Origin: Akkermansia sp.
GTDB lineage: Bacteria; Verrucomicrobiota; Verrucomicrobiia; Verrucomicrobiales; Akkermansiaceae
Assembly (NCBI GenBank): GCA_045576695.1
Contig: JAZNGY010000075.1
Span: 46,097 to 110,096 of the forward strand
Direction of reading: 5' to 3'
DNA: 64,000 nucleotides
Under the pieces are notes generated by a model that worked only from the letters and a program-made list of their open reading frames with translations, had not been told where the DNA came from and did not search any database. The position numbers and the translations under genes were made by a program. Of this stretch, positions 559 to 58,858 are shown in pieces; the stretch's first letter is position 1; every line of letters begins with the position of its first letter.

Positions 559-581
559 TTTTGACACCGGATTCTGAGTAT

Positions 582-1478
582 ATGGCAACATTACATACAG
601 GATTCGGCAGGAATGGCGATAGGATGGTGTGGTTCGGTAATACGGGCTACACCATCACCGGGCTGACGATTGAGCTCAGCCGAGACCGGGAAACCGGAGA
701 TACCGTAGAGCTTACCTATGAGGTACCGGAGGATGTTGCCATGAGCTCCATTCCGGAGATGGATTCTTCCATTGATGTCCTTTCTTCCGTGGCTCTGAGT
801 AAGGCCGTTGTGACTCCCGGCGTGGCCGGAATGGCCAGCGTAAAGCTGACCTATTCCAAGCCAGTTGTTGAAGAAGAGGAAGAGGACGATGACGATAATA
901 CTGGCGGCTCTGATGACGGCATGTCCGGTTCCGATGAGGAGGACAATGAGGAAGAGGGCTCTTGGACTCTCGGCGGCAATAAGTTTACCACCTCCTTTGA
1001 CGTGACCGTTGTAGACCAGCCTATCCTGACGCACCCTAAGATGGCCAGTATTTCCGGCGGGCAGTTGGAGTATCTCAAAGCCTTTATGGATGGAGCCCGC
1101 CTCTGGGAACTGGTTCCGGAGGTTGATGGCTCGGGTAAGCCGAAGCTGGATAGTGATGGGCTCCCGGTCATGAAGCAGCTCGGTAAGCTGCTCAAAACCG
1201 GGAGCAAGGCCTTTGACCTCATCAATAAGGGAGTTACCGCCTATAAGGATATTATGGCCACCTATACCGTACGCATGACCTCCCGCACGGATAAGTCCGA
1301 CATCAGCTCTGTGGGTAAAATCAACAACCCTCCCAAGGCTCCAAAGTTCCCGAATCGCACTTGGTTGCAGGTATCCTCCAACTGCTCCATGAATGATGAC
1401 GGCAAGACCTATACCATTGAGAACACATGGCTGCTCTCCGGCCTCGGTGGTTGGGACAAAGATTTGTATGGCTCTTAA
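582..1478 (+). CDS. Phage minor tail protein
   Basis: Follows the TMP; homolog of 48603-49496; acidic linker; ATG 582 follows the TTTTGACA motif. Confidence 0.7.
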   Translation: MATLHTGFGRNGDRMVWFGNTGYTITGLTIELSRDRETGDTVELTYEVPEDVAMSSIPEMDSSIDVLSSVALSKAVVTPGVAGMASVKLTYSKPVVEEEEEDDDDNTGGSDDGMSGSDEEDNEEEGSWTLGGNKFTTSFDVTVVDQPILTHPKMASISGGQLEYLKAFMDGARLWELVPEVDGSGKPKLDSDGLPVMKQLGKLLKTGSKAFDLINKGVTAYKDIMATYTVRMTSRTDKSDISSVGKINNPPKAPKFPNRTWLQVSSNCSMNDDGKTYTIENTWLLSGLGGWDKDLYGS

Positions 1479-1481
1479 ACG

Positions 1482-3440
1482 ATGAAGATTCCCGATAAAG
1501 TACGCGTTGGCGAAAAGCTGTCCGCCCGCTGGCTCAATCAGATTATCGACTGCCTGAAGGAGCTGGCCAAGGCTGCCAACATGGCAGGCAACGGAACATC
1601 TACCTCCAGCATTGAATACTCCGGCTCGGATTATCGAGATACCAAGTACCGGGGTACTGGTGGTACCGATTTGCAGGAGTTCCGAGTTGTGCCGTTCCAG
1701 TTGCGGTTGAAGCCTAAGCATCTGTGTGATGTAAGCGCAGATGGCAATTGGCCAAAGATAGCCCAGATTAAAGCTGGGGCTATCATTGACTATATGGGCA
1801 AAACGCGCCCGGTTCCGGAGAACGCCACCATCTACGACTACACGGAGGGCTGGGTTGATATCGGAGCATTTTCGGAGCAATTACACAAGGTCTTTTGCAT
1901 CATTAAGCAGAATTACAAGGGCGAAATCCTCAGCGCGGAAATTAGGAGCTCTGAGGAGAAGTTTGTCCCTTGGGGGAAGACAGAGGAGAATACCAAGGGT
2001 GATGGCGTTCTGTCTGTCTTCATTGGTTCCTACCAGCTCCGCAAGATTAACGAGGTCAACCGCGCCCATATCTATCAGGCGCATTGTGGCACGTTGGATT
2101 TGCAGACCGTGCAGGTGGAGAAAGCCTTTGATGTAAGTGAGGAGGACGGGACGGGTAGCGGTAGTGAAGATGGTAGTGCCTATTACACCGCACCGGAAAG
2201 CGAGGAGTACGAAAGCAAACCCGCCGGGCTGTTCCGCAAGCGGGATGAACACTTGTTCGTATTCAAAAAGCTCATTTGTGGAGAAGGACTGGAGCTGGCA
2301 GACGGTAAGAATCTGAAAATCACGCTACGCCGCGCCAATTCTGAGTGGTCGAATGGCTCCGGGGATGCTTCGTCACAGTCCTCCGATGCTCCTGTCATCA
2401 CGATTGGCGGGGTGGAGGATATTGTGTTCGATAGTGAGATTCTGGAACCGGAGATTGATATGGGGATTATCAGGATTCCCTTTGCAGATACCATCAAGGA
2501 TGTTACGGGAGTCATTTCCGGGCTGGTGGTTAGATACGCTCCGGCAATCCTGAATGATGACGGCACGGTTACGTTCTTGGGTGAGGACGGTTCGCGGCTT
2601 CCTGATACGCCCGCGCCCGTTGATGCCGGTTCTGATTCTGCGTCCGGTTCCGGGGCTGCATCCTACCACAATCAGATTGTTAAGGGCGTTATCTACATCA
2701 CGATTCCGATTTTCCAAGATGGCTCAGGGTCACAATCTTTGTCGGCTTCTGCCAGCGCAAGTGATTCCGCTTCCGGTTCCGGCTCCTATGAGGATACCGA
2801 ATCTGCTTCTGATTCCGCTACCGGGTCTATCTCTGATACGGTGACTGGCTCCGCATCCGGCAGCGGTTCCGGCTCCGGTAGTGGGTCTGCATCTGCCTCG
2901 GATAGTGGTTCCGCTTCCGGTAGCTCCTCGGCATCCGATAGCGGTTCGGTTTCGGCTTCGGCCTCTGTCTCCGGTAGTGAGTCTGTGGCGGGCTCTACGG
3001 TAGAGTCTTCCCCCGATGGCTCGGCTACAGAGGATTCCACCCCGGGAGGTTCAACCCCGGGCGAATCCTTACCGGGAGGCTCTACGCCCAGCGGTTCTGT
3101 TCCGGGTGGTTCCTCTCCCGGCTCTGAGGGTGGCAGTTCCTCCGTTGGATGTGATTGTGCCGTCAAACTGGAGGAGATGGCCGCCAAGATTGCAGCTCTG
3201 GAAGAGCGCATTGCAGAGCTGGAGAAGAAAGAATGCACCTGTAAATGTGGTGACCTGCTGGCTCAGATTCAGGCAGCGGTGGCAGCCGAAGCTCAGGCAA
3301 TCGCAGCAAGCATCAATTACGAGGTATCGGTCAATGGAGCCGTAGTTACCACCACGGAATACGGTACGCTCGTAGCAGACACCACCGGCTCTGTAACCGC
3401 AAACGGAGCTTCTGCTAGCTCAAACATTCACTACGAATAA
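1482..3440 (+). CDS. Ser/Gly-rich tail-associated protein with C-terminal Cys motifs and coiled coil
   Basis: 652 aa; SASASDSASGS-type low-complexity tract at ~2620-3145; CDC...CTCKC; homolog of 49503-51530. Confidence 0.7.
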   Translation: MKIPDKVRVGEKLSARWLNQIIDCLKELAKAANMAGNGTSTSSIEYSGSDYRDTKYRGTGGTDLQEFRVVPFQLRLKPKHLCDVSADGNWPKIAQIKAGAIIDYMGKTRPVPENATIYDYTEGWVDIGAFSEQLHKVFCIIKQNYKGEILSAEIRSSEEKFVPWGKTEENTKGDGVLSVFIGSYQLRKINEVNRAHIYQAHCGTLDLQTVQVEKAFDVSEEDGTGSGSEDGSAYYTAPESEEYESKPAGLFRKRDEHLFVFKKLICGEGLELADGKNLKITLRRANSEWSNGSGDASSQSSDAPVITIGGVEDIVFDSEILEPEIDMGIIRIPFADTIKDVTGVISGLVVRYAPAILNDDGTVTFLGEDGSRLPDTPAPVDAGSDSASGSGAASYHNQIVKGVIYITIPIFQDGSGSQSLSASASASDSASGSGSYEDTESASDSATGSISDTVTGSASGSGSGSGSGSASASDSGSASGSSSASDSGSVSASASVSGSESVAGSTVESSPDGSATEDSTPGGSTPGESLPGGSTPSGSVPGGSSPGSEGGSSSVGCDCAVKLEEMAAKIAALEERIAELEKKECTCKCGDLLAQIQAAVAAEAQAIAASINYEVSVNGAVVTTTEYGTLVADTTGSVTANGASASSNIHYE

Positions 3441-3442
3441 CG

Positions 3443-3686: not shown

Positions 3687-4889
3687 ATGAAAATTGACCT
3701 CAACAAGAACACCCGCTGCATCTCGATGTCTCCCTGGAGGCAATGCTTCATGCGCCGCATTTTCCACGAGCGCGGGCTTACCATGCCCCCGGTGACGCAT
3801 CCCATCATCCCGGAGAAGCCTACGCGCCCCAAGGAGCCCAAGGCTTATTCGAGTCTGGCTCTGACCTTTATCCGCCTGATTCTGGAAGCAGAGCGAGACG
3901 GCTTGCCGTATCTGATTATCTACGAGGACGATGCTTATCCCTGTGCAGCCCCTCAGGAAACGCTCGATAAGCTGCTGGCTGAGCACCCGCTCCCGGCTGA
4001 CTGCGGTTTGCTGTGTCTGGGTGATGCTAACGGCGTGAGCCGTTTCCGGGGGAGGCATACCATCCTGCTGGACTCCTGCCAACGGCCTTACACTCCGCTT
4101 GTTCCAAACAGGGCAGAAAACAAGGGGAGCCATGCCTTTGTGGTATTCCGGTCTGCCATGATTCCTTTCGTGCAGGCAATCGCCTCTTTTGGTGTAACGG
4201 ACATGTCGTTCTCCCGCATCCGCAATCATTGCGGCCTCCGGGCGTATGGCATCTTCTTCGACCCTATCTTTACGCAGCACCGCTTCAATGGCGGCAATGC
4301 CCCGGAGCCCGCACACCGATTCCCGGAGTACTTCTTGCATCACAAGGCAGAGCTGGATAAACGATTCCCAAGGCCTACTCAGCAGACGCGCCTATTGGCC
4401 AAATCCTCACCGCGCTTCTGGCTCTTTGCCAATCATCCCAAGGCGAATGCCGCCGCGCTGGGGATTGCTCCGGATGATGTATTGGTATTCCTGAACCGCG
4501 CCAAGCCTTATGAGCACCTGAAGGATTTGCCGAATCGAAAGCTCCTCATTGTTCGCCGCAATGCCCGGGATAAAAACTGGTTCATCCCCTATGGCAAGGA
4601 GAAAGAGATTTTCTCTCTGTTTGAGGATGTGCTGCTCCTGAGTGATAAGGCCTTGGCCAAAGAACGCTCGTGGTTCGATGAATACAAGGCTGCCACCAAC
4701 AATGCTTCACCCACAACAGGCTGGATTGCTTACCACTTGCTGCGGGATGATTTCCCGGATGCCGAGGTAGTGCTGGTCAACTTCAAGCCTGATGGCAACA
4801 ACGGCTCCTATAAGTGGCACAAGCACGATTGGCAATACGAAGCAGAGTATTACCGCAAGCACGAGATACCTATCAAAATCTTATTTTGA
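3687..4889 (+). CDS. Putative two-domain glycosyltransferase (GT25-like N-terminus, GT29/sialyltransferase-like C-terminus)
   Basis: LIIYEDDA (GT25-like DxD region); DDVLVFLN, SPTTG...EVVLVNF and HDWQYE resemble sialylmotifs L, S and VS; homolog at 51790-53001. Confidence 0.65.
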   Translation: MKIDLNKNTRCISMSPWRQCFMRRIFHERGLTMPPVTHPIIPEKPTRPKEPKAYSSLALTFIRLILEAERDGLPYLIIYEDDAYPCAAPQETLDKLLAEHPLPADCGLLCLGDANGVSRFRGRHTILLDSCQRPYTPLVPNRAENKGSHAFVVFRSAMIPFVQAIASFGVTDMSFSRIRNHCGLRAYGIFFDPIFTQHRFNGGNAPEPAHRFPEYFLHHKAELDKRFPRPTQQTRLLAKSSPRFWLFANHPKANAAALGIAPDDVLVFLNRAKPYEHLKDLPNRKLLIVRRNARDKNWFIPYGKEKEIFSLFEDVLLLSDKALAKERSWFDEYKAATNNASPTTGWIAYHLLRDDFPDAEVVLVNFKPDGNNGSYKWHKHDWQYEAEYYRKHEIPIKILF

Positions 4890-4904
4890 CACCTGATTGC
4901 AAGT

Positions 4905-6296
4905 ATGGACATCTTTATCAACACAGACAAGAGCCCGGCTCAATTGCAGGGCAAATCTACGGGTTCCCCGCTTAGCTCTTTCAAGGTGAAGCGCGGAGCC
5001 GTAGTTCCTCTGAGTGTCACGATTCTGGGCTGTTCCTCCGCTTCCGGTCTTCGCATGGGCATCAAGGCAAAGGGCAACTACGAGGGAGATTTGCTTATCT
5101 TTGCTGAAGCAGATTCCGGCACGCAGACAGAACAGGGTACCCGCTTTGATTTGAAGTTGGTTGCTTCCTCTCTTGCGCTGAATGACGCGCTCGATGTAGG
5201 GGAGGGTAAGGAGAGTACTCCGGCCACTTTGGCAGCCATGACCGAGTTTGCTTGGATGGAGGGCGGCGAAACCCGTCTTTCTGATACTCTCCAGACGACT
5301 ATCATCAATGATATTATCCGCCTTGCCACGGATGCCCCGGAGAGTGTTACCGGGGAATATCCCGCGCCGGATTTGGTGGCCACTAAGTCTTGGGTGAACA
5401 GCAAACAGGCTTCCGTTGATACCTCTGGATTCGTTATGCTGGGTACGGATGAAACTATTTCAGGTAAGAACGCTCGCCCGATAGGTAAAACTTCCTCCGG
5501 CAGTCTTGCCGTGGATATTTCCGGTCTTTCTGCATACGATATAGCCAAGGATAACGGCTTTGTCGGCACCGAAGAGGCATGGCTTGCCTCGCTCAAAGGT
5601 GAGCGCGGAGCCAAGGGTGAACAGGGCGAACCGGGGATTCAAGGAGTTCAGGGCGAGCCCGGAGAAGTAGACCCGCTCGTGGTTGCCGATGCAGTACAGG
5701 AGGCTTTGTACGAAGAGCTTTTAGAGGAACACACCTCCGTAGTAGGTACAACCGACATCAATTGCCGTTGGGCACAGCTCAGCCTTGCACATTGCCCACC
5801 CGCCGGGAATCTGAAATCCATCACGATTCCTTGTCGTTCTGCCAGTAATTCTGAAATGACCACGGCCTCTTCCTATCTCGGAGTATTCGAGGAGAACTCT
5901 TCCGGTAACTTCGTCCACGTTGGTACATCCACGAATGCGGTGAATCAGGCAGCCGGAGCCAATAGCATTTGGCTCTTCGATGGTGTATCGTTGAGTGGCA
6001 CCAAAATCCGATTGTCTCTCATGACTAACCGTACGTCCACAGCTCTGAGCACCTCACTCATTCTGGGAGCCAGAGGCGCGTATAACGATACGGACGGCTG
6101 TTATCTGAGCAATTCCAGTGGCGGCACGGAAAAGTACCTCATTGGCGCGGTATTCACAATTGGTACCCCGGGACCTCTGTTTACCCCGGCTTCGCATGAG
6201 GCCGATGCGACCCTCCATCTGACAGCCGATGAACACACGGCTTTATCAGAGCTTCTCGCCAACAAGGATGCCTTGCTGGCTCTTCTCAACCAATAA
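4905..6296 (+). CDS. Tail fibre / receptor-binding protein with short collagen-like segment
   Basis: GERGAKGEQGEPGIQG repeat; N- and C-termini shared with 55055-56452, central domain different. Confidence 0.7.
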   Translation: MDIFINTDKSPAQLQGKSTGSPLSSFKVKRGAVVPLSVTILGCSSASGLRMGIKAKGNYEGDLLIFAEADSGTQTEQGTRFDLKLVASSLALNDALDVGEGKESTPATLAAMTEFAWMEGGETRLSDTLQTTIINDIIRLATDAPESVTGEYPAPDLVATKSWVNSKQASVDTSGFVMLGTDETISGKNARPIGKTSSGSLAVDISGLSAYDIAKDNGFVGTEEAWLASLKGERGAKGEQGEPGIQGVQGEPGEVDPLVVADAVQEALYEELLEEHTSVVGTTDINCRWAQLSLAHCPPAGNLKSITIPCRSASNSEMTTASSYLGVFEENSSGNFVHVGTSTNAVNQAAGANSIWLFDGVSLSGTKIRLSLMTNRTSTALSTSLILGARGAYNDTDGCYLSNSSGGTEKYLIGAVFTIGTPGPLFTPASHEADATLHLTADEHTALSELLANKDALLALLNQ

Positions 6297-12627: not shown

Positions 12628-12700
12628 GGCCCTGTAGCTCAGTGGTTAGAGCAGGCGACTCATAATCGCTTGGTCGCGGGTTCGAGCCCCGCCGGGGCTA
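12628..12700 (+). tRNA. ileX: tRNA-Ile2 (CAT, lysidine-modified type)
   Basis: GGCCCTGTAGCTCAGTGGTTAGAGCAGGCGACTCATAATCGCTTGGTCGCGGGTTCGAGCCCCGCCGGGGCTA; closely resembles bacterial ileX; preceded by TTGACC...TACCAT promoter. Confidence 0.9.
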
Positions 12701-20545: not shown

Positions 20546-20574
20546 TTGACATCACCCTTGGTAAGGCATAAAAT
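20546..20574 (+). promoter_or_regulatory. Canonical sigma70 promoter TTGACA-17-TAAAAT
   Basis: Upstream of GTG 20597, which has an AAGGAG RBS. Confidence 0.7.
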
Positions 20575-38798: not shown

Positions 38799-38897
38799 AA
38801 GTGTAAAAGTTTGTGACGGTTATTATAGTTCGCTCTGCCGTCTCGGTCAAGCTCTTTCGGCTTAGATTGTGTCTGTTTTTGACACGCCCGCAAGGGT

Positions 38898-42126: not shown

Positions 42127-42142
42127 CACCCACCACACTAAT

Positions 42143-42547: not shown

Positions 42548-42567
42548 CCCCACACTCATACACGATT

Positions 42568-43461: not shown

Positions 43462-43474
43462 GCCGATTAACACC

Positions 43475-44717: not shown

Positions 44718-44732
44718 CACCCACACAAAGAT

Positions 44733-45529: not shown

Positions 45530-45533
45530 TCAC

Positions 45534-45953: not shown

Positions 45954-46162
45954 ACGCAACTGTGATTTTCACGATTGCTAAAGCGACGGGGTGGACGGAA
46001 GAATACATCATGTGGCTTCCGCTGCGTAAGACGCTCCAATATCTTCATGCAGCTTGGGTTAGCGAGGGCGTTGAAACAGAGTGGCGCAGCGTCTCCGAGG
46101 AAGAAGCCGCCGAAGCTGCGAGCCTGTTTAACCGATTAAGATACCTGACAAAACATGCCTGA
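45929..46162 (+). CDS. Tail assembly chaperone T segment reached by -1 frameshift
   Basis: The -1 frame from 45929-45935 is open through IFTIAKATGWTEEYIMWLP to 46162. Confidence 0.7.
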   Translation, partial: PKRACPALNATVIFTIAKATGWTEEYIMWLPLRKTLQYLHAAWVSEGVETEWRSVSEEEAAEAASLFNRLRYLTKHA

Positions 46163-48578: not shown

Positions 48579-48602
48579 TTTTGACATCCTGTTCCGTTGT
48601 AT

Positions 48603-49496
48603 ATGGCAACATTACGAACAGGATTCGGCTCTGGTGGTGACAGGCTCGTGTGGTTCGGTAACACGGGCTACATTATCACCGGGCTGACGATTGAACTGAG
48701 CCGCGACCGCGAGACAGGCGATACTGTAGAATTAACCTATGAAGTGCCGGAGGCCAGCGCGATGAGTTCCGTGCCGGAGATGGATTCCGGCATTGACGTG
48801 CTTTCTTCTGTGTCTCTCAGCAAGGCTGTTATCACGCCCGGTGTGGCTGGTGTGGCCAGCGTGAAGCTGACTTACACCAAGCCCAAGGTGGAGGCCGAGG
48901 AAAGCGAGGAGGATGACGATTTGGATGGCTCTGGTGAAGAAGAAGGCTCTGATGAGGGCGGCGGCGGCGAGGAGGGTTCATGGTCTATGGGCGGTGGCTC
49001 GTTCACTACTTCCTTTGACGTGACTGTGGTTGACCAGCCTATTCTGACTCACCCTAAGATGGCCAGTATCTCCGGCGGGCAGCTGGAATACCTCAAGGCG
49101 TTTATGGATGGAGCCCGCCTGTGGGAGCTTGTGCCGGAAGTGGATGGCAGCGGCAAGCCTAAGCTGGATAGTGATGGGCTTCCGGTCATGAAGCAACTCG
49201 GCAAGCTTCTCAGGACTGGCAGTAAAGCCTTTGACCTCATTAACAAGGGGGTGACTTCCTACAAGGATATCATGGCCACTTACACAGTCAGACAGACATC
49301 CCGCTCGGATAAGTCTGATATTTCATCGGTGGGCAAAATCAACAATCCTCCCAAGGCTCCGAAGTTCCCTAATCGTACGTGGTTGCAGGTGTCCTCCAAC
49401 TGCTCCATGAATGATGATGGTAAGACCTATACCATCGAAAACACTTGGCTGCTCTCCGGCCTTGGCGGCTGGGATAAAGACTTGTACGGCTCTTAA
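48603..49496 (+). CDS. Phage minor tail protein
   Basis: Homolog of 582-1478. Confidence 0.7.
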   Translation: MATLRTGFGSGGDRLVWFGNTGYIITGLTIELSRDRETGDTVELTYEVPEASAMSSVPEMDSGIDVLSSVSLSKAVITPGVAGVASVKLTYTKPKVEAEESEEDDDLDGSGEEEGSDEGGGGEEGSWSMGGGSFTTSFDVTVVDQPILTHPKMASISGGQLEYLKAFMDGARLWELVPEVDGSGKPKLDSDGLPVMKQLGKLLRTGSKAFDLINKGVTSYKDIMATYTVRQTSRSDKSDISSVGKINNPPKAPKFPNRTWLQVSSNCSMNDDGKTYTIENTWLLSGLGGWDKDLYGS

Positions 49497-49502
49497 TCTG
49501 CT

Positions 49503-51530
49503 ATGAAACTCCCCGAAAAAGTACGTGTAGGTGAAAAGCTCTCGGCGCGTTGGCTAAATCAGGTGGTGGATTGCTTGAAAGAGCTGGGTAAGGCTTCCAA
49601 TGTGGGCAACGGCTCTTCTACCTCCAGCATTGAGTATTCCGGCTCTGATTATCGTGATACCAAGTATCGTGGTACAGGTGGTACGGATTTGCAGGAATTT
49701 CACGTGGTGCCGTTCCAGCTGCGATTGAAGCCTAAGCATCTGTGTGATGTAAGCCCTGATGGCAACTGGCCGAAGATTGCCCAGATTAAAGCCGGAGCTA
49801 TCATTGACTATATGGGCAAAACGCGCCCGGTTCCCGAGAATGCCACCATCTACGACTACACGGAGGGCTGGATTGATATCGGGGCTTTTTCGGAGCAATT
49901 ACACAAGGTCTTTTGCATCATTAAGCAGAATTACAAGGGCGAAATCATCAGCGCGGAAATCAGGAGCTCTGAGGAGAAGTTCGTTCCCTGGGGCAAGACT
50001 GAGGAGAATACCAAGGGTGATGGCGTTCTGTCTGTTTTCATTGGCTCATACCAGCTTAAACGAGTGGAGGAGGTCAACCGAGCCCATATCTATCAGGCTC
50101 ACTCGGGTACGCTGGACTTGCAGACTGTACAGGTTGAAAAGCTCTTTGATGCAGACGAAGAAGCAAAGGATGCCCCCTCTGGCAGCGGCTCGGGTGCAGG
50201 CTCGGCAGCTGGGTCTGATAATTACTACACGGCTGGGGAAAGCGAAGAATATGAGAGCAAGCCCGCCGGGTTATTCCGTAAGCGGGACGAGCATCTTTTC
50301 ATCTTCAAGAAACTTATCTGCTGTGAGGGGCTGAGCCTTGAGGATGGCAAGAATCTGAAAATCAAGCTTCGCAGAGCCAATTCCGTATGGCCTGATGGCA
50401 GCGGATCACAAGAATCCCTGGCTGATGATGAGCCTGTCATTACCCTTGGCGGTGTCGAGGATATCGTGTTCAACAAGGAGATTCTGATTCCTTTGATTGA
50501 GTCCGGCATCATTAAGGTTCCCTATGCCGATACGCTCAAGGAAACAACTGGTGTCATTTCCGGGCTGGAAGTTCGATATGCTCCGGCTGTTCGTGAGGAT
50601 GATGGCTCTGTTACCTTTCTGGGCGAAGACGGCTCACGGCTTCCACATGGCGGGGCAAATAATCCGGCTGGTGGCTCGGGTTCCGGTTCAGCTGATGGGC
50701 CTTATATCAATCAGATTGTGGAGGGTGTCATCCACCTGACTATCCCGATATTCGTGGATGAGCTTTCGGCTTCTTTGTCACAGTCTGCATCGGAAAGCAA
50801 CTCTGCTTCAAACTCAGCTTCTGAGCCGGGCTATGATACGGAAAGCGATAGCGATTCCTATTTCCCCTCAATCGGGGAATCCGAATCAGCTTCAGCAAGC
50901 GCCTCCAATTCAGCCAGCGCTTCTGCGAGTGAGTCCGCTAGTGGTTCTTCTTCCGGCTCAGCCAGCGCATCCGCTTCTGCTTCTTCTTCCGGCTCTGATA
51001 TCGCTTCTGCTTCTGACATTGCTTCCGGCTCTGATGTTCCCTCGGATTCTGTAGCAGGTTCTTCTTCCTCTGGCTCAACTGGTGGTTCATCTTCTTCCGG
51101 CGAGGGTTCGACCGGGGGAGGCTCTGTTCCCGGCGAGGGGTCTGTACCGGGTGGTGGCTCTATCCCCGGAGGCGGTTCAATTCCTGGGGGCAGCAGTTCT
51201 TCGGGGTCATCCGGCGGTAGTGGGTGTTGTGGTTGCGACTGCGCCACGAAGCTGGCAGACATGCAGGCCAAGATTGATGCCTTGGAGACTCGCATCGCTG
51301 AACTGGAGAAGAACAAGACCGAATGCAACTGCAAGTGTGGAGACTTGCTCGCCCAGATTCAGGCGGCTGTAGCAGCTGAAGCTCAGACCATCGCCAACAG
51401 CATCAATTACGAAGTCTCGGTCAATGGTGCGGTCGTGACTACCACGGAATACGGCACGATTGTTGCTGATACAACAGGCTCAGTTACAGCTAACGGAGCA
51501 AGCGCTTCTTCCAACATTCACTACCAATGA
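49503..51530 (+). CDS. Ser/Gly-rich tail-associated protein
   Basis: Homolog of 1482-3440; SASASASESASGSSSGSAS tract at ~50670-51240; CCGCDC...CNCKC. Confidence 0.7.
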   Translation: MKLPEKVRVGEKLSARWLNQVVDCLKELGKASNVGNGSSTSSIEYSGSDYRDTKYRGTGGTDLQEFHVVPFQLRLKPKHLCDVSPDGNWPKIAQIKAGAIIDYMGKTRPVPENATIYDYTEGWIDIGAFSEQLHKVFCIIKQNYKGEIISAEIRSSEEKFVPWGKTEENTKGDGVLSVFIGSYQLKRVEEVNRAHIYQAHSGTLDLQTVQVEKLFDADEEAKDAPSGSGSGAGSAAGSDNYYTAGESEEYESKPAGLFRKRDEHLFIFKKLICCEGLSLEDGKNLKIKLRRANSVWPDGSGSQESLADDEPVITLGGVEDIVFNKEILIPLIESGIIKVPYADTLKETTGVISGLEVRYAPAVREDDGSVTFLGEDGSRLPHGGANNPAGGSGSGSADGPYINQIVEGVIHLTIPIFVDELSASLSQSASESNSASNSASEPGYDTESDSDSYFPSIGESESASASASNSASASASESASGSSSGSASASASASSSGSDIASASDIASGSDVPSDSVAGSSSSGSTGGSSSSGEGSTGGGSVPGEGSVPGGGSIPGGGSIPGGSSSSGSSGGSGCCGCDCATKLADMQAKIDALETRIAELEKNKTECNCKCGDLLAQIQAAVAAEAQTIANSINYEVSVNGAVVTTTEYGTIVADTTGSVTANGASASSNIHYQ

Positions 51531-51542
51531 TTTCTCCCCGCC

Positions 51543-51785
51543 ATGGCTTGCAACTGTGAAAACATCGACATGAACAGCATCCGCGCCGCTGTCCGACAAC
51601 TCCTCTGGCAGCGGGTTGCGGAGATTGTTCAGAATATCTCCTGCACACACACCAATACCGATGGCCACTACAGCCCCTCGCAATACTGGTATGACCTCGA
51701 CCGCACCGACCGCCGTTCTGTCAGCACCAGTATGAGCGTGGGGCTGCGTGGCAATACCATTGTCATCACTCTTTCCTACGCCTAA
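51543..51785 (+). CDS. Small conserved Cys-containing phage protein
   Basis: Homolog of 3443-3685. Confidence 0.75.
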   Translation: MACNCENIDMNSIRAAVRQLLWQRVAEIVQNISCTHTNTDGHYSPSQYWYDLDRTDRRSVSTSMSVGLRGNTIVITLSYA

Positions 51786-51789
51786 CCCA

Positions 51790-53001
51790 ATGCCTGATAT
51801 GAAAATTGACCTCAACAAGAACACACGCTGCATTTCGATGTCTCCTTGGAGGCAAAGCTTTATGCGCCGCATCTTCCTTGAGCGGGGATTGCAAATGCCA
51901 CCTGTAACGTACCCCATCATTCCCGAGAAGCCTACACGACCCAAGGAGCCCAAGGCTTATTCGAGCCTCGCCCTTACGTTTATGCGGCTAGTTCTGGATG
52001 CAGAGAAAGAGGGCTTGCCGTATCTGATTATCTACGAGGACGATGCTTATCCCTGCAATGCCCCACAGGCTACGCTCGACAAGCTACTTGCCGACCATCC
52101 TCTTCCATCTGACTGTGGGCTTCTGTGCCTGGGGGACAGGAATGGCAACAGTCGGTATCGTGGTCGGCATACGCTCTTGCTGGAGGACTGCCAAGCTCCG
52201 TACACGCCCCTCGTGCCGAATCGTGCCGAGAACAAGGGCAGTCATGCTTTCGTGGTATTCCGACCTGCCTATATCCCATTCGTGCAAGCTATTGCCAGCT
52301 TCGGAGTGACTGATATGTCGTTCTCGCGCATCAGGAATCATTGTGACCTGCAAGCCTATGGTATCTTCTTCGACCCCATATTCAGCCAGCATCGCTACAA
52401 TGGCGGCAATGACCCGGAGCCCGCCCACCTGTACCCTGAGTATTTCATGCACCACAGGCGGGAGCTGGATAAAAGATTCCCTCGGCCTACGCAGCAGACT
52501 CGGTTGCTGGCGAAGCCCGCTCCCCGCTTCTGGTTGTTTGCCAACAATCCCAAGGTGGATGCTGAGGCGTTAGGCATTGCCCCCGATGATGTGCTGGTAT
52601 TTCTCAACCGGGCAAAGCCTTTCGAGCATCTGCGGGACTTACCTAATCGCCGCATCCTCATTGTTCGCCGTAACGCCAGAGACAAAAACTGGTTCACTCC
52701 CTACGGCAAGGACAAGGAACTCTTTTCTCTATTCGAGGACGTGCTGCTTCTGAGTGACAAGGCTTTGGCAAAGGAACGCAGATGGTTTGCTGAATACAAG
52801 TCTGCTACGAAGAACGCTTCTCCTACTACCGGCTGGATCGCGTACCAACTCTTGCGTGAGCATTACCCGGATGCGGAGGTGGTGCTGGTGAACTTTGTGC
52901 CGGATGGCAACAACGGCTCATACAAATGGCAGAAGCATGACTGGCAATATGAGGCTGAGTATTACCGGAAACACGATGTCCCTTGCCGAGTTTTGCTGTG
53001 A
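51790..53001 (+). CDS. Putative two-domain glycosyltransferase (GT25-like + GT29-like)
   Basis: Homolog of 3687-4889 with all motifs retained. Confidence 0.65.
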   Translation: MPDMKIDLNKNTRCISMSPWRQSFMRRIFLERGLQMPPVTYPIIPEKPTRPKEPKAYSSLALTFMRLVLDAEKEGLPYLIIYEDDAYPCNAPQATLDKLLADHPLPSDCGLLCLGDRNGNSRYRGRHTLLLEDCQAPYTPLVPNRAENKGSHAFVVFRPAYIPFVQAIASFGVTDMSFSRIRNHCDLQAYGIFFDPIFSQHRYNGGNDPEPAHLYPEYFMHHRRELDKRFPRPTQQTRLLAKPAPRFWLFANNPKVDAEALGIAPDDVLVFLNRAKPFEHLRDLPNRRILIVRRNARDKNWFTPYGKDKELFSLFEDVLLLSDKALAKERRWFAEYKSATKNASPTTGWIAYQLLREHYPDAEVVLVNFVPDGNNGSYKWQKHDWQYEAEYYRKHDVPCRVLL

Positions 53002-53022
53002 TGTAAAGCGTTGAAAATAAGT

Positions 53023-53162
53023 GCAAAAAGGTGAAAGAAAAAGTAAAAAAGTCCTTGCATCTTGTTCGCAATCTGCTATACTTTCACCATAGACAAAAGG
53101 CTAACGCTTAATACATTACAACACGCAATACGACCATGAGCACCACCACCAAGACCGCCGCC
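53023..53162 (+). repeat. 140-bp direct repeat copy 1 (UP element, promoter, leader, first 9 codons)
   Basis: Matches 53822-53961 with about 3 mismatches. Confidence 0.92.
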
Positions 53163-53528
53163 GACAACGCCGCCCTGAACGAGCTGAAGCGTAACAGCAT
53201 CGCCCGCGAGTACAAATACCAGCTCCTGAGCTTCATGACCGAGTACGAGACTCTGGAACAGCACGAGCATCAGAAAGCCGCCCTCCTGCGCCGAGCTGAA
53301 TACAGCACAGAACTCCTCCACATCCTCGATACGCGCAGCGCCGTAGAAGTGATGGAGGATTTCAAATCTGAGAATGAGCGTATCAAAGACCGCATCAAGG
53401 AGCAGAAGCGAATCGTTACGTACAAGGCAAACAAGCTGATGGAAGCCGTAGCCCTCATGAATAACGAGCTTGGCATCCAAGTCGCCAGCCCCGCATTGGA
53501 AATCGCTAAGCAGTTCATTAACGCCTAA
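53136..53528 (+). CDS. Small helical protein, paralog family member 1
   Basis: MSTTTKTAA start; C-terminal ELGIQV...IAKQFINA. Confidence 0.75.
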   Translation: MSTTTKTAADNAALNELKRNSIAREYKYQLLSFMTEYETLEQHEHQKAALLRRAEYSTELLHILDTRSAVEVMEDFKSENERIKDRIKEQKRIVTYKANKLMEAVALMNNELGIQVASPALEIAKQFINA

Positions 53529-53542
53529 CCTGATATCGACCC

Positions 53543-53809
53543 ATGAGCGCAACTATCAAGACCGTATACTACAGCAAGGCTGGTGAAATCGTCAGCAGCT
53601 GGGATGAAGCTGAGAGCGTGACCTACCACACCATCTGTACCAACGAGCAAGCAGACGCAGCCGAGGCCAAGTTGGTAGCTCTGGCCCACGAGTTTGCCGA
53701 GAAGCACTACAAGGAGGTACAGAAAGAGAACTACAGCATTCGCGGAGCCAAGCTCAACGATGGCACCTACTACATGCAGACGAAGGTGTGGAAGCAAAGC
53801 TGTAAGTGA
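53543..53809 (+). CDS. Small hypothetical protein
   Basis: 88-aa ORF within the cassette. Confidence 0.7.
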   Translation: MSATIKTVYYSKAGEIVSSWDEAESVTYHTICTNEQADAAEAKLVALAHEFAEKHYKEVQKENYSIRGAKLNDGTYYMQTKVWKQSCK

Positions 53810-53821
53810 TTGGAAATAAAC

Positions 53822-53961
53822 GCAAAAAGGCGAAAGAAAAAGTAAAAAAGTCCTTGCATCTTGTTCGCAATCTGCTATACTTTCACCATAGACAAAAGGC
53901 TAACGCTTAATACATTACAACACACAATACAACCATGAGCACCACCACCAAGACCGCCGCC
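53822..53961 (+). repeat. 140-bp direct repeat copy 2
   Basis: See 53023-53162. Confidence 0.92.
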
Positions 53962-54303
53962 GCCCTGAAGTACAACGTCCTGTCCTACTACAAGTACCAC
54001 TTCGTGAAGTTCCTGAAGGAGATGGACAAGCTGGATGAATACCAGCGCCAGCTGGAAGCCCTCGACCGCCGTGAGGCTCTGACCAAGAGCCTGATGGAGC
54101 AGATGGATAAGGGAAGCGCCGAGCATCTTGCTAAGGATTTCCAGTTTGAACGTGAGTGCATCGAACAGAACATCGCAGATACTGGGTACTACTTGGAAGG
54201 CAAATCAGAAAAGCTGATTGCCGCCGCAGAGAAGATGGCTGAGCTTGGCCTCCCGGTAGAGGAAAGCGTCATCACTATGGCCAAGGTTTACATTAACGCC
54301 TAA
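53935..54303 (+). CDS. Small helical protein, paralog family member 2
   Basis: MSTTTKTAA; C-terminal ELGLPV...MAKVYINA. Confidence 0.75.
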   Translation: MSTTTKTAAALKYNVLSYYKYHFVKFLKEMDKLDEYQRQLEALDRREALTKSLMEQMDKGSAEHLAKDFQFERECIEQNIADTGYYLEGKSEKLIAAAEKMAELGLPVEESVITMAKVYINA

Positions 54304-54316
54304 TCCCTTAACTACA

Positions 54317-54625
54317 ATGACCGAGTTATACGACATCGAGAGCGACACCGCCCAGATTTACGAAGAGCGAGCAACCGCATTGAAAGCGACCTTGAGCGAA
54401 ATCGACAAGTGGCTGGATTTCTACGATAAGGCAGTCGAGTCTGAGGACAACCTAGAAAAGTATGAATCCGCTCTGGCTCAATACACTTGGAACATGACCA
54501 AGCTCGAAGAGAAAGCTATCTGGCAGAGTAAGGACTTTTGGCGAATCGCCGGGCTCGCCATGTCCCACGGTCTGGAGGTAGACATTGAGCTACTGGGTAA
54601 AGCCGCTTCCTATAGAAGCCTCTGA
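54317..54625 (+). CDS. Small acidic helical protein, paralog member 3
   Basis: YEERATALK...IAGLAMSHGLEVD. Confidence 0.75.
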   Translation: MTELYDIESDTAQIYEERATALKATLSEIDKWLDFYDKAVESEDNLEKYESALAQYTWNMTKLEEKAIWQSKDFWRIAGLAMSHGLEVDIELLGKAASYRSL

Positions 54626-54666
54626 TAACACTAACAAATTTCCCCAACAACAAACACAATACAACA

Positions 54667-54981
54667 ATGATACACGCAACAAAAGAAGAAATCGGAAAGG
54701 CCTACGAGGCCAAGGCAACGGAACTCCGCAACGCCCTCGAAATGACGATGGAAATCATGGACAACTACGAAGCCGCCGTCATTGAGGACACCGACAAGGA
54801 GACGTACGACAAGGCCAAGGCTGCCTACTGCAACAACATCGTACAGTACGCAGAGAACAATGACCGCCTGAGTCTGGAGTTCAGCAAGATTGCCGGGCTT
54901 GCCTTATATTACGAGCTGGAGGTAGACATGAAGCTGTTGAAAATAGCCATGAACTACGTAGACCAGCATCGGCCGGAATAA
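54667..54981 (+). CDS. Small acidic helical protein, paralog member 4
   Basis: YEAKATELR...IAGLALYYELEVD. Confidence 0.75.
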   Translation: MIHATKEEIGKAYEAKATELRNALEMTMEIMDNYEAAVIEDTDKETYDKAKAAYCNNIVQYAENNDRLSLEFSKIAGLALYYELEVDMKLLKIAMNYVDQHRPE

Positions 54982-55001
54982 CGAGAAATCCTAGCGATTT
55001 C

Positions 55002-55036
55002 CCCGGGAGCAGACACCACGCTGCCCCGGCTTTTTT
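55002..55036 (+). terminator. Terminator closing the small-gene cassette
   Basis: ccgggagcag...ctgccccgg followed by T6. Confidence 0.7.
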
Positions 55037-55054
55037 GACGTGCCGCCCCTTGGT

Positions 55055-56452
55055 ATGGATATCTACATCAATCCCGACAAGTCTCCGGCAGCTGTACAGG
55101 CAAGAACCAGCGGTACGCCTATCTCTTCGCTTCGCCTCAAGCGCGGAGCCAATCTCAACTTTTCCGTGGTTATCATTGGCAGCAAAGCTGCAAGCAATCT
55201 ACGTTTCGGCATCAAGGCCAAGGGCGATTACGAGGGCTCACTCCTCGCGTATGCGGAAGCCACTACCGGGCAAGCTACTGACGAGGGGATGAAGTTCGAC
55301 CTGAGCCTTACTGTGGCAAGCATGGCTCTGAATGAAGCCCTTGATGTTGGCTCTGGTAATGCGGTCGCTGCGGCCTCTCTTTCCGCAGTAGCCGAGTTTG
55401 CTTGGCAAGACGATGGTGCAGAACGAATTTCCGATACCATCAATACCACGCTCCTCAATGATATTATCCGCTTGGCTACGGAAGCCCCCGAGGCTGCGGC
55501 TGGTGAATATCCGGCTCCTGACCTCGTGGCCACCAAGTCTTGGGTGAACAACAAGCAAGCAACGGCTGATGCTTCCGGCTTCGTGAAGCTGGGAACTGAT
55601 GAAAAGCTTTCCGGCAAGAATATTCGCCCTGTAGGCAAGACGGATGCAGGAGGCTTGGCGGTGGATGTCTCCGGGCTCTCCGCTTACGAGATTGCCAAGG
55701 CTCAGGGCTTCGTTGGTACTGAGGAAGCATGGCTTGCTTCCCTAAAGGGTGAGCGCGGTTCTAAAGGGGAAAAGGGCGAGCCCGGCATCCAAGGTGAGAG
55801 CGGAGCATCTGCCTATGATGTATGGCTGACTGAGGGTAACACAGGCGACAAGACTGCCTTCTTTGCTGACTTAGGCACGTCTGCCTTGGCAACGCTGTAT
55901 GAGTCGCCCGCCGGAGTAGCCACCGATAATGCCAACATCTATGGCTTCGGCATGGTGATGAAAAACAGGGGACAAGTACGCGCTCTCTCCACTCAATGCC
56001 GAACTGGCGGTAACGCTGCTCCTGCCAACACGGATATTTTGGCCAAGGTATGGAAAAAGGACAGCAGCGGCAACAAGACTCTCCTTGCTACCAGCACGAA
56101 CTATCAGCAGCATAGTGTAGGCGAGACTCTCCGTTGGAAGTTTGACCCGTTTGAGGTGGAAGCCGGGGATATGCTTCTGGTTACGTTCCATACCAGCGAC
56201 TATGAGGATGGTACTCAGTATGCAGCTGGGCATCAATGTTGCTTCGCAGTCACCAGCACCAGCGAACCAGAAACCGGGTGCATTGGTGGCGATGGCCAAT
56301 GGCAGTATACCAATCTTATTCCACTCTACACTTGGGAACTTCAGGTACGGCATGCTTACGACACAATCTCACACTTAACCCCCGATGAACACACCGGGCT
56401 TGCGCAGCTCCTCGCAAGGAAAGACGCTCTGCTCGCTCTCCTTAACTCTTAA
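55055..56452 (+). CDS. Tail fibre / receptor-binding protein
   Basis: Homolog of 4905-6296; collagen-like segment; different central domain. Confidence 0.7.
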   Translation: MDIYINPDKSPAAVQARTSGTPISSLRLKRGANLNFSVVIIGSKAASNLRFGIKAKGDYEGSLLAYAEATTGQATDEGMKFDLSLTVASMALNEALDVGSGNAVAAASLSAVAEFAWQDDGAERISDTINTTLLNDIIRLATEAPEAAAGEYPAPDLVATKSWVNNKQATADASGFVKLGTDEKLSGKNIRPVGKTDAGGLAVDVSGLSAYEIAKAQGFVGTEEAWLASLKGERGSKGEKGEPGIQGESGASAYDVWLTEGNTGDKTAFFADLGTSALATLYESPAGVATDNANIYGFGMVMKNRGQVRALSTQCRTGGNAAPANTDILAKVWKKDSSGNKTLLATSTNYQQHSVGETLRWKFDPFEVEAGDMLLVTFHTSDYEDGTQYAAGHQCCFAVTSTSEPETGCIGGDGQWQYTNLIPLYTWELQVRHAYDTISHLTPDEHTGLAQLLARKDALLALLNS

Positions 56453-56476
56453 CCCTCTCATTTATCCATTTTTCTT

Positions 56477-56788
56477 ATGACCAATTCAGCAGTAACAGGC
56501 GGTATCGTTATCGCAAATGCTCTGGCCGTGGTTTCCATTGCTACGGCTACAGAGCTTAACCCTATACTTGAGTGCATCCAGAATGGTGCATCAGTCGGCG
56601 CGATCATGGGCATCTTTCTTTGGCGTGAGGTAAAGCGAGCTGAACGCTACGAGCATCTTTACGACCAAGAGCGCAAGCTCAGGCTGGAGGCCGAGAACAA
56701 ATGCAAGAGTTGTCCTTTCGTGCAGCGTGCCAACGAGGAGTTTATCGACAGGCGCATTGATGAAGAAAGACAAGATGCAAAGCATTGA
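56477..56788 (+). CDS. Holin-like membrane protein
   Basis: Homolog of 6314-6625. Confidence 0.5.
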   Translation: MTNSAVTGGIVIANALAVVSIATATELNPILECIQNGASVGAIMGIFLWREVKRAERYEHLYDQERKLRLEAENKCKSCPFVQRANEEFIDRRIDEERQDAKH

Positions 56789-56884
56789 GTATTAAGAAGA
56801 AAAAGAAAAGAAAAATGCAAAAAGTTCTGGACTCTTGTGCCTGATGTGCTATACTGTGATAATAGATAAAAGCACTAAGTAGCA

Positions 56885-57172: not shown

Positions 57173-57184
57173 CCTTTTACAACC

Positions 57185-57598
57185 ATGAGCAGTACATCAA
57201 TCGAAAGAGGAGACATAGTCCGAATCAAGTCGGAATGGCTTGACGCAGGAGAGAACGCAGAGCTGAAGTATGTGGTGTTGCAGGATAACGGCAACAATCG
57301 CGTACTTATCCGAGCCCTCGACACAGGTCTGCCATTACCCCCGGTAAATGAAGCCGATAAAGATTGGCTCGTGTACTGCGGACGAGCTTACCCCAAATAT
57401 GAACCCGAACAAATACCATCAGGCATGAACGTATACATCGAAGCAAGCTTCACCATCCAAAGCACAGGTGAGCATAAAAGGATAGAAGTCAAGATTAACG
57501 AAGACCTCATCCCCTGGGGCGTGGCGAAGTTCCTTGAACGCCGCTACGGCGAAATCACGGGGCTGTGCTTCCACTTCACACGAGAAGCCAACGACTAA
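57185..57598 (+). CDS. Hypothetical protein
   Basis: Second gene of the cassette; followed by agccgcc...ggcggct-T terminator. Confidence 0.7.
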   Translation: MSSTSIERGDIVRIKSEWLDAGENAELKYVVLQDNGNNRVLIRALDTGLPLPPVNEADKDWLVYCGRAYPKYEPEQIPSGMNVYIEASFTIQSTGEHKRIEVKINEDLIPWGVAKFLERRYGEITGLCFHFTREAND

Positions 57599-57655
57599 AG
57601 GCCCAGCCGCCCACAAGGCGGCTTTTTCTTTGCCTTTTGACAAGTGTCCTCAAGT

Positions 57656-58858
57656 ATGGACACTCACTTTCATTCCAATACTTCCGTTCGGTCTTTCTTC
57701 AAATCCATCACGTCCGAGTCAATGGGCTGCGGCCACCCGGACAAAGTTGCAGACGCTATCTCTGACGCTATCCTTGATGCTTGCTTAGCGCAGGATCCAG
57801 AAAGCCGTGTTGGCTGCGAGACTCTGGTAAAGGGCAATCAGGTTATCCTTGCCGGGGAAATTACCACCAAGGCAAAGCTGGACTACGAGCGGATTGTCCG
57901 CGATACAGTTCACCGCATTGGCTACCGCACAGCTCAGGATGACCCAGTATTCAATTCAGAATCCCTCAACGTGACGAACCTAATCTGCGAGCAAAGCCCT
58001 GACATCGCGCTCGGCGTTGATGAAAACAAGGGAGAGGGCAAAGAGCAAGGAGCTGGTGACCAAGGTATGATGTTCGGCTACGCTTGCAATGAAACGCCGG
58101 AGCTGATGCCAGCCCCTATTATGTTCGCCCACCGCATCATGAGAAAACTGGAGGAGGTCAGGAAGAGTAGGGCGGTTGCTTGGCTTCGACCGGATGCCAA
58201 ATGCCAAGTGACAGTTGAATATGGTTACGAAAATGGTTATGCGGGCAAGCCTTGCCATATAAGCGCGGTCGTGCTCAGCACCCAGCATTCCCCAGACGCA
58301 ACAAGGGAAGAGATTGAGAAGCTATGTCTCGAAGTCATCAAATCCAGCCTCCCGGCATCACTTGTATCACCCGCAACTCAATTCCATATCAACCCCACCG
58401 GACGCTTCGTTACAGGTGGCCCACAGGCCGATTGCGGTCTGACAGGCCGTAAGATTATCGCCGACACCTACGGCGGCGTAGGGCGGCATGGCGGGGGCGC
58501 TTTCTCGGGAAAAGACGCCAGCAAGGTTGACCGCAGCGCAGCTTACATGTGCAGATGGGTTGCCAAGCACATCGTGGCTTCTGGGCTGGCCAAGCATTGC
58601 GAGGTTCAGGTGAGCTATGCTATCGGCAAGGCTGAGCCTGTTTCCGTGGAGGTGCTGAGCGATTGCAGCTTCCTGACCTCTGATGAATTGGCAAGGCGAG
58701 TAAAGGAAACATTCTCATTCAAGCCCGCTGATATTATCGAAGCCCTGGGGCTGAAGAATCCGATATTCTCGGCTACTACGAATTACGGCCACTTTGGCAA
58801 AGCCGACCTGCCTTGGGAAAAGCTGGATCAGAAGAAGCTCGATAAGTTGAAATCATAA
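57656..58858 (+). CDS. metK: S-adenosylmethionine synthetase
   Basis: SES...[33 protein letters not shown]. Confidence 0.95.

Follow-up and report, generated by a model that had tools for sequence, protein, structure and literature searches.

Start-linked TTGACA boxes at the operon heads of Verrucomicrobiota prophages as candidate promoters of leaderless mRNAs

The late promoters of the Thermus phages phiYS40 and Lalka27a are the nearest functional analogue of the element described here, a TTGACA hexamer that precedes start codons at an almost fixed distance in a 64,000-nucleotide (nt) stretch of DNA (the window; contig JAZNGY010000075.1, positions 46,097 to 110,096) and that heads operons of the prophage which fills most of it. 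The host of the window is an Akkermansia species (Verrucomicrobiota), as placed by related loci in public genomes. In the Thermus phages, many densely spaced phage-specific promoters lie directly before late genes, and most transcripts are leaderless, with the first base of the start codon (A or G) at their 5' end; a phage factor is presumed to give the host RNA polymerase its new specificity (bioRxiv 10.64898/2026.04.20.719267). These phages infect another phylum, and their promoters rest on a -10 element, TAGGGT, located 6 nt before the transcription start site (TSS), whereas the sole strong element found here is TTGACA, ending 13-14 nt before the presumed TSS.

Three other kinds of phage system, as well as the leaderless genes of bacteria, offer partial parallels. 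Cluster K mycobacteriophages carry start-associated sequences (SAS) and their extended form (ESAS). These short asymmetric repeats share one orientation and lie just upstream of the start codons of some of the genes; they are not found in the host, are retained within gene families, overlap the upstream stop codon in some cases, and have no known reader (PMC3203893). The boxes described here agree with SAS in orientation, in marking a gene subset, in their absence from the host, and in their conservation by gene family, but not in sequence or distance, nor in the level at which they are presumed to act. SAS is a 13-mer, GGGATAGGAGCCC, that includes a Shine-Dalgarno (SD) core, lies 3-7 nt from the start, and belongs to non-structural genes of one phage cluster (PMC3203893). 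In turn, the box is an SD-less 6-mer that lies 13-14 nt away and marks structural, lysis, and regulatory operon heads in prophages whose hosts belong to several Verrucomicrobiota families and orders. Leaderless-gene promoters, described in Deinococcus-Thermus, in Actinobacteria, and for lambda PRM-cI, resemble the boxes in that there is no 5' untranslated region and no SD, the ATG or GTG is the first transcribed base, and an element is held at a fixed distance from the start (PMC4007540, PMC12340547, PMC4633059). What is locked in their case is a -10 box, TANNNT, which stands 6-8 nt before the start codon and has an ordinary -35 farther upstream. The sites in the window similarly have neither an SD nor room for a leader before the ATG or GTG, but the region from -13 to -1 is C-rich and then G-rich, with no TANNNT. 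T7-type promoters are comparable in that one phage-specific sequence precedes about 12 operons and succeeds host-type early promoters; they differ in their ~20 conserved bp, in their leadered mRNAs, and in being read by a phage-encoded single-subunit RNA polymerase, which was not found here. The stoperators of phage L5 (Cluster A) form numerous asymmetric, one-orientation sites in short intergenic gaps near stop codons, and the presence of TTGACA on one of their strands is a further likeness. They are repressor-binding sites with no fixed spacing to starts, unlike the boxes, which are locked at 13-14 nt.

The pattern is real, and stronger than first noted; it is highly non-random, specific to phage, and maintained in hosts of several Verrucomicrobiota families and orders. 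We consider it probable, at roughly 0.6, that the boxes are phage-specific middle or late promoters giving leaderless or near-leaderless mRNAs in a temperate siphovirus family of this phylum. In the window, TTTTGACA is present in 10 copies, all on the + strand, while dinucleotide-preserving shuffles (n = 100) contain 2.34 on average (standard deviation 1.48, maximum 7), with 0/100 reaching 10. These 10 copies and two variants each lie 12-16 nt before a start codon that has no SD. The hexamer positions, start codons, and spacers of the twelve sites, as listed in a first-pass annotation of the window, were all found correct on recheck, and its observation that the sites lack an SD was borne out as well: a credible SD was found at 0/12 sites, with no GGAGG-like core 5-10 nt upstream, and 11/12 spacers lack any SD-like core, the sole GGAG, a chance occurrence, being located in the spacer that follows 35854. 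Only 3 of the ~50 + strand phage genes are preceded by AGGAG(G), and the others have CA-rich leaders.

That the element belongs to phage rather than host genes was confirmed with a sample of ~100 kb of Akkermansia chromosomal DNA, drawn from three neighbourhoods (reached via MetK homologues) and the window flanks. Of the TTGACA copies in this sample 0/22 are start-linked, compared to 12/14 of those in the window's late regions (p = 7e-8, Fisher), and several host copies have a proper -10 box 17 nt away. Exact-protein look-ups for host DNA found nothing when made with three proteins encoded in the window (M16 peptidase, recombinase, and MetK), and a metagenome scan yielded 4 loci only. The early and lysogeny part of the main prophage is also free of start-linked TTGACA. 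In every relative anchored on the gene of the helix-turn-helix (HTH) protein described below, canonical -35/-10 promoters or unlinked hexamers are all that the early region contains, and the first start-linked box is found no earlier than the HTH gene. The early promoter of the window, TTGACA-17-TAAAAT (20546-20574, + strand), provides the contrast, being followed by a leader with AGGAG and then by GTG 20597, a layout shared by the relatives.

Conservation was assessed in 80 loci (992 kb) anchored on portal homologues with 55-100% identity, from Akkermansia, Chthoniobacter, Puniceicoccales, and others, with genes called by a simple open-reading-frame rule. A hexamer was counted as start-linked if an ATG or GTG opening a frame of at least 60 amino acids (aa) lay 12-16 nt downstream. 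In these loci TTTTGACA occurs 108 times on the gene strand and once on the other, and TTGACA 406 and 93 times, respectively. Together with the window, 276/424 + strand copies of TTGACA (65%) are start-linked, the spacing being 13 nt in 153 cases, 14 nt in 84, 15 nt in 15, and 16 nt in 22, and a spacing of 13-14 nt accounts for 85% of start-linked sites; a spacing of 17 nt is seen at 13 sites. Eleven control hexamers are start-linked in 2-19% of cases, and one-position variants of TTGACA in 2-6%, with the exception of TTGACG (19%, 47/251) and TTGACT (17%, 19/111). The conserved core is exactly TTGACA, with change tolerated at position 6 only. The sequence logo reads (G/T)TTGACA, a C-rich block, a G-rich block, a pyrimidine (Y, 96% at -1), and RTG, where R is a purine, while information upstream of the hexamer does not exceed 0.2 bit. 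The T-run which the first-pass annotation had counted as part of the motif is not conserved, being limited to the lower-GC Akkermansia clade.

The boxes do not mark single genes, as had been supposed from the window, but the heads of about 12 operons, i.e. 12 of ~50 genes. The motif precedes 17/17 orthologues of the holin-like gene, 27/34 of the scaffold gene, 17/18 of the tail-operon head (44733), 5/5 of the gene at 48603, and 14/20 of the gene at 35874, but only 0/51 of coat, 1/51 of portal, and 1/38 of TerL. Since coat, portal, and TerL are spared, the presence of the motif does not track protein abundance. In distant relatives the same operon-heading genes (holin, scaffold, major tail) are marked.

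All twelve sites of the window are on the + strand. The first (559-584; TTTTGACA, hexamer 561, 15 nt, ATG 582) precedes a distal-tail-like gene of a partial prophage, a paralogue of the gene at 48603, and the second (4884-4907; TTTTGACA, hexamer 4886, 13 nt, ATG 4905) a tail-fibre-like gene with a collagen repeat, where the upstream gene ends at the TGA of the motif. The third (28981-29001) is a variant, CCTTTGACA at 28981, with TTGACA 12 nt before ATG 28999 of the HTH protein, followed by the fourth (29563-29587; TTTTGACA, hexamer 29565, 14 nt), which leads to ATG 29585 of an LmbU-family regulator. The fifth (32876-32900; TTTTGACA, hexamer 32878, 14 nt) is the only one followed by GTG, at 32898, opening a phrog_503 gene directly before TerL. 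The sixth (35852-35876; TTTTGACA, hexamer 35854, 14 nt, ATG 35874) heads a ParB-like nuclease/methylase block. The seventh (38877-38900; TTTTGACA, hexamer 38879, 13 nt, ATG 38898) opens a 61-aa holin-like gene that is followed by M15 endolysin, portal, and protease genes, and the eighth (42121-42145; TTTTGACA, hexamer 42123, 14 nt, ATG 42143) a coiled-coil scaffold-like gene followed by coat, with the protease gene ending at the TGA of the motif. The ninth (44712-44735; TTTTGACA, hexamer 44714, 13 nt, ATG 44733) stands at the head of the tail operon and the tenth (48579-48605; TTTTGACA, hexamer 48581, 16 nt, ATG 48603) after the tape-measure gene. The eleventh (55035-55057) is the TTGACG variant, TTTTTGACG at 55035, 14 nt before ATG 55055 of a tail-fibre-like gene, with a hairpin and T-run upstream, and the twelfth (57635-57658; TTTTGACA, hexamer 57637, 13 nt, ATG 57656) precedes the gene of a phage-borne MetK (SAM synthetase). 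A thirteenth TTGACA (29180-29202, + strand) lies inside the HTH gene, 14 nt before the in-frame internal ATG 29200 (Met-68), and is kept in close relatives. A leaderless mRNA starting there could encode a 120-aa, C-terminal, HTH-only isoform.

Codons 2-6 of the motif genes show synonymous third-position changes among orthologues (in the scaffold gene, for example, GAA/GAC/GAT and GAT/GAC), and because the N-terminal codons vary in this manner, the motif-linked ATGs are real starts. In the Akkermansia clade, unrelated motif genes (among them 35874, 42143, 57656, and 4905) begin with ATGGA(C/A/T)AC(A/T), encoding M-D/E-T, and selection may act on the nucleotides of this A/C-rich gene start. In E. 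coli, leaderless translation is aided by a CA-rich stretch behind the AUG. Akkermansia is SD-poor (PMC10783764), and ~10% of the mapped TSSs of Akkermansia muciniphila are leaderless (PMC4782308).

The first-pass annotation had also pointed out that three upstream genes end in Phe-stop (after ILF, HQF, and IQF) because their TGA is that of the motif, and it had taken this as a sign of selection on the DNA. The endings are correct, and a fourth upstream gene (28601-28984), a homologue of which is called as a gene in relative L085, stops at the motif TGA as well. Across the relatives, the TGA of the hexamer is the stop of the upstream gene at 88/283 sites (31%), close to the one frame in three expected of genes that abut the motif, and the overlap is thus a by-product of compaction and not independent evidence of selection.

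Two interpretations had been offered for the boxes, namely a promoter of leaderless mRNAs and a UUUUGACA translation-initiation signal. Comparative evidence favours the former, although the leaderless start itself is something that we infer. Under the latter, UUGACA located 13-14 nt before the AUG in a polycistronic mRNA would be a non-SD element for ribosome recruitment or reinitiation, or the site of a translational activator or repressor. Such an RNA-level signal would agree with the tight spacing to the start codon and with the position of upstream stops, which, where they are not inside the hexamer, are mostly within a few nt of it, as in translational coupling; the phylum-wide invariance of the hexamer would suit a ribosomal reader, and RNA-derived contigs run unbroken across the sites. 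Host and phage both do without SD sequences (PMC10783764), and the mycobacteriophage SAS are a precedent, being start-linked repeats that are thought to act in translation (PMC3203893). We nevertheless regard this explanation as unlikely. Most genes lack the motif, including that of the coat, the most abundant product, and 22% of sites have no same-strand upstream gene within 200 nt. To judge from the E. coli sequence, UUGACA has no complement in the 3' tail of 16S rRNA.

Four further observations separate the two interpretations. A strong hairpin with a T-run lies directly upstream of 15/285 motif sites, compared to 9/1287 other gene starts (p = 1.5e-6), as exemplified by the intrinsic-terminator-like AGCCGCC...GGCGGCT at 57605-57623 (+ strand), which ends 12 nt before the twelfth site; between such a terminator and the box there is no space in which a different promoter could lie. 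Four relatives of Chthoniobacter type have the box, in its usual context, 45-50 nt before a phage-borne, initiator-like tRNA-Met gene, with GGC|R at +13 and no start codon. The position of the G-rich block and Y|R step relative to the hexamer provides the third observation. Where starts are 15-17 nt away, 23/49 sites keep GY|R at hexamer +13/14 and only 3 have it next to the ATG; the additional 2-4 nt are A/C-rich. Among unlinked TTGACA copies GGY-R is present at +13/14 in 12/79 on the + strand and 1/59 on the - strand. This feature is anchored to the hexamer and moves with it, not with the ATG. Finally, the codon found 13/14 nt after the hexamer is ATG or GTG in 234 cases and TTG in 0, and an absence of TTG starts is expected because the first base would have to be an initiating purine. 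Taken together, the terminators, the box before a tRNA gene, the hexamer-anchored GY|R, and the lack of TTG favour a fixed distance from hexamer to TSS, i.e. a promoter. The change from canonical early promoters to start-linked boxes at the HTH/LmbU-like pair and the share of leaderless TSSs in A. muciniphila are also in keeping with this. In relative L037, the box and leader are duplicated around a 1-kb insert carrying an inserted gene.

The tRNA-Met genes (L037:10034-10108, L049:13718-13792, L080:17837-17911, and L044:16918-16995, all on the + strand) are located inside the structural region or at its edge. They have the initiator hallmarks of a C1xA72 mismatch and A11:U24, but are without the three G-C pairs of the anticodon stem, and the anticodon loop in L044 has 8 nt. 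An initiator-like phage tRNA fits a phage that relies on leaderless translation.

Some sites look palindromic (for instance, CATGCC...GGCATG), and a spacer hairpin was considered as a general feature. It was rejected, as there is no positional covariation, pair frequencies being those expected from column composition, and folding energies are only mildly below those of shuffled sequences (z ~ -0.7). The lack of pairing covariation in the spacer also counts against an RNA-level signal, and the sites show no stem-loop with compensatory changes of the kind that characterizes N4-type hairpin promoters or RNA hairpin operators.

With regard to promoter geometry, the hexamer is identical to the -35 consensus of sigma-70, and an ordinary sigma-70 promoter has to be considered, in which RTG would occupy the place of the extended -10 TRTG, given a spacer of 17 bp, and the TSS would fall ~17 nt into the coding sequence. 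With a 13-nt spacer the TG of the start codon indeed falls at -15/-14, the place of the extended -10 TG, and one gene family has TAAGAT at 18 nt. However, a -10-like TAnnnT at 16-18 nt was found in 9/238 sites, belonging to that one family, and its rate is that of the background at other offsets. The remaining 229/238 sites have none, in agreement with the earlier statement that no normal -35/17/-10 promoter fits upstream of the ATG. A canonical TSS would be expected ahead of the start codon, some 30 nt past the -35; here the start follows the hexamer by 13-14 nt, and codons 2-6 evolve as coding sequence, so that the mRNA must include the ATG. In addition, host TTGACA copies with real -10 boxes are never start-linked. 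An ordinary sigma-70 promoter is thus very improbable. Sigma-54, extracytoplasmic function (ECF), sigma-B, and sigma-28-like geometries were compared with the logos by eye, and none fits; for sigma-54 (GG at -24, TGC at -12), there is no conserved GG 10-11 bp upstream of the hexamer. In the literature searched, the motif is not described.

The proposed promoters would operate as follows. Early genes would be transcribed from the canonical TTGACA-17-TAAAAT promoter, with a leader and SD. From the HTH/LmbU-like pair on, some 12 operons would each be read from (T/G)TTGACA followed by a 13-14-nt spacer, C-rich and then G-rich, and by Y|R. RNA polymerase would start at R, which in most cases coincides with the first base of the start codon (A or G) but sometimes lies 2-6 nt before it, and the first gene of the operon would be translated from a leaderless or near-leaderless mRNA, with the downstream genes relying on the CA-rich, SD-less leaders typical of an SD-poor host. 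The hexamer would occupy -19 to -14, with no -10 box, and for this geometry the enzyme would have to be host RNA polymerase reprogrammed by a phage factor, for which the HTH protein (28999-29562) and the LmbU-like protein (29585-30364) are candidates. Both the start of transcription at the boxes and the identity of the protein that reads them are deduced here from sequence. Phage-specific promoter regulons with leaderless transcripts are already known, and the proposal as a whole belongs among them; what is unusual is its architecture. We can tentatively suggest, as a possibility that we hold with less confidence than even odds, that this architecture has not been described before: a lone -35-identical hexamer at -19 to -14, without a -10, with a GC-tolerant spacer, used by host RNA polymerase together with a conserved phage factor to produce leaderless starts, family-wide in Verrucomicrobiota and coupled in some members to a phage initiator-like tRNA.

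Several points weigh against reading the boxes as promoters. A -35-identical hexamer centred near -16.5, with a GC-rich melting region and no -10, fits no known geometry of sigma-70, sigma-54, or single-subunit polymerases. Contigs from public RNA runs (assembled, and several of them DNA-like, with flat depth) cross motif sites with no pile-up of ends. Many of the counted sites are orthologous and thus not independent; in particular, the tRNA-linked sites are orthologous copies of one locus, and host-like genes follow the tRNA in one relative (L049, a LysR gene), where the tRNA may be at the prophage edge. A phage RNA polymerase was not found, there being no RNA_pol family match among the 28 prophage proteins (prophage B) scanned against Pfam. 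The divergent sigma-70/ECF-like protein encoded at 22972-23640 (- strand), one of two readers named in the first-pass annotation, is not conserved with the motif and is unlikely to be the common reader, since its gene and that of its 792-aa neighbour are missing from several motif-bearing relatives. The other, the HTH protein, still stands as a candidate, although its recognition helix diverges in distant relatives while TTGACA remains constant.

The HTH protein (28999-29562, + strand; 187 aa) is the product of the first motif-bearing gene of the main prophage and ends with a helix-turn-helix similar to sigma region 4 and HTH_10. Its predicted structure (pLDDT 71) has no significant match in the PDB, and a profile search of PDB sequences gave weak HTH matches. 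The homologue of LmbU-family transcriptional regulators (29585-30364, + strand), which the first-pass annotation had missed, adjoins the HTH gene in 15/15 HTH-anchored relatives and is a further candidate reader. In Streptomyces, LmbU is a DNA-binding activator (PMC6510168). The invariance of TTGACA across host families and orders points to a conserved reader, for example region 4 of the host sigma within a remodelled holoenzyme, or a phage protein that is itself conserved. The 792-aa early protein (20597-22975) is always accompanied by the convergent, overlapping sigma-70/ECF-like gene, and the pair is an accessory early module, present in some relatives only. The possibility that the 792-aa protein is a hidden RNA polymerase was considered and dismissed: it has no match in Pfam, PHROG, or NCBIfam, its homologues number 10, and its AlphaFold2 model (pLDDT 72) suggests weak RdgC/YejK-like matches and no polymerase fold.

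The presence of HTH and LmbU-like regulators beside the first sites could also mean that TTGACA(C) is an asymmetric, one-orientation binding site of a repressor or another regulator, which silences or times operons in the manner of the L5 stoperators without being a promoter. The sites are numerous and intergenic, share one orientation, and in many cases overlap a stop codon. The opposite strand of the L5 stoperator GGTGGCTGTCAAG is CTTGACAGCCACC, a sequence similar to TTTTGACACCCACC at 42121. This explanation is nevertheless quite improbable, as stoperators have no fixed distance to starts, 6-8 bp is short for a specific operator, TTGACA is constant across hosts though the candidate binding proteins diverge, and the Y|R step, the G-rich block, and the lack of TTG starts would be left unexplained.

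The boxes coincide with boundaries of mosaic modules (35849-35852, 38876, 44732, and 45534). It is precisely at motif sites that variant contigs from public runs change over to unrelated sequence, with joints from 35074, 35272, and 35286 to 35849-35852 and from 38800 to 38876, and with loose ends at 38876, 44732, and 45534. It could be argued from this, as well as from the duplication of box and leader around the insert in L037, that the boxes are mainly short homologies for the exchange of gene modules between related phages. Mosaic joints at conserved regulatory sequences are, however, an expected side effect, and linkers of this kind would account neither for the fixed spacing to starts nor for the strand bias or the Y|R step, making such a role hardly credible as the main one.

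The main prophage, a second and complete one of siphovirus type, extends over ~12.7-59 kb. It comprises a leftward lysogeny and replication module (serine recombinase, DUF2924, DUF2800, and helicase), a rightward early module (the 792-aa protein, PolA, and primase-helicase), the regulator module formed by the HTH protein and LmbU-family regulator, and modules for packaging (terS and TerL), DNA modification (ParB-methylase genes), lysis (holin-like gene and M15 endolysin), head (portal, S49 protease, scaffold, and coat), tail (tail genes and tail fibre), and cargo (MetK). A search of INPHARED with the 12 kb of the late region at 36000-48000 found no near-identical phage DNA. The main prophage is preceded in the window by the tail end of another prophage (partial, 1 to ~6900), which adjoins a tRNA-Ala, then by the host M16 peptidase gene (8097-12461, - strand) and a tRNA-Met (12628-12700). 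The window begins inside this other prophage or remnant, whose tail genes have paralogues in the main prophage (46155-56800) and bear the motif at two positions that match. Identity between the tail-fibre-like proteins encoded at 4905-6296 and 55055-56452 is 47%; both have a collagen-like GEPGIQG stretch, and their C-terminal thirds have diverged.

The non-coding gap of ~880 nt after TerL, which precedes the sixth site, contains (35020-35281) arrays of 11-bp (and 20-22-bp) repeats similar to GGTCAAA/GGTTAAAGCGG. Their number differs among related phages in public runs, as shown by 11- and 22-nt indels, and the region may be a terminase recognition (cos/pac) region or an origin. Within the late region, near-identical extended -10 promoter-like sequences (TGTGCTATACT) at 37970-37998 and 56828-56855 precede the genes at 38014 and 56885, and an identical TAGACA-16-TACATT at 53090-53117 and 53889-53916 precedes the duplicated small genes at 53136 and 53935. 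These four look like host-type promoters of inserted accessory genes.

The gene at 57656-58858 encodes a full-length MetK, ~66% identical to chromosomal Akkermansia MetK, with a variable N-terminal extension that starts with MDT. The box precedes the phage metK and its homologue at the end of related prophage L090, while host metK has none. A 93% identical MetK copy is found at the end of the related prophage in L090/L091, behind ankyrin-repeat genes. The phage MetK is probably cargo and is possibly tied to the phage methyltransferases or to counter-defence. Past the prophage, at 59600-62400, the G+C content falls to 0.40, and this stretch, with a DNA methylase gene (59617-60366), a gene for a 544-aa protein without a family match, and then an ImpB/UmuC-type polymerase gene, may be a further mobile or defence island.

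If the boxes are promoters, they would represent a positioning of RNA polymerase outside textbook geometries, and a search for their reader, whether this is a factor of the phage or a sigma that has been remodelled, would be worthwhile. If the signal should instead act at the level of RNA, it would be a new non-SD translation signal of equal importance. The rule TTGACA-N13/14-RTG is a strong marker of gene starts and operon boundaries for phages and prophages of Verrucomicrobia, including those of the gut genus Akkermansia, and it provides a small collection of expression signals under phage control for use in organisms with few genetic tools. The proposed promoters would also link leaderless translation, in an SD-poor phylum, to the timing of phage genes.

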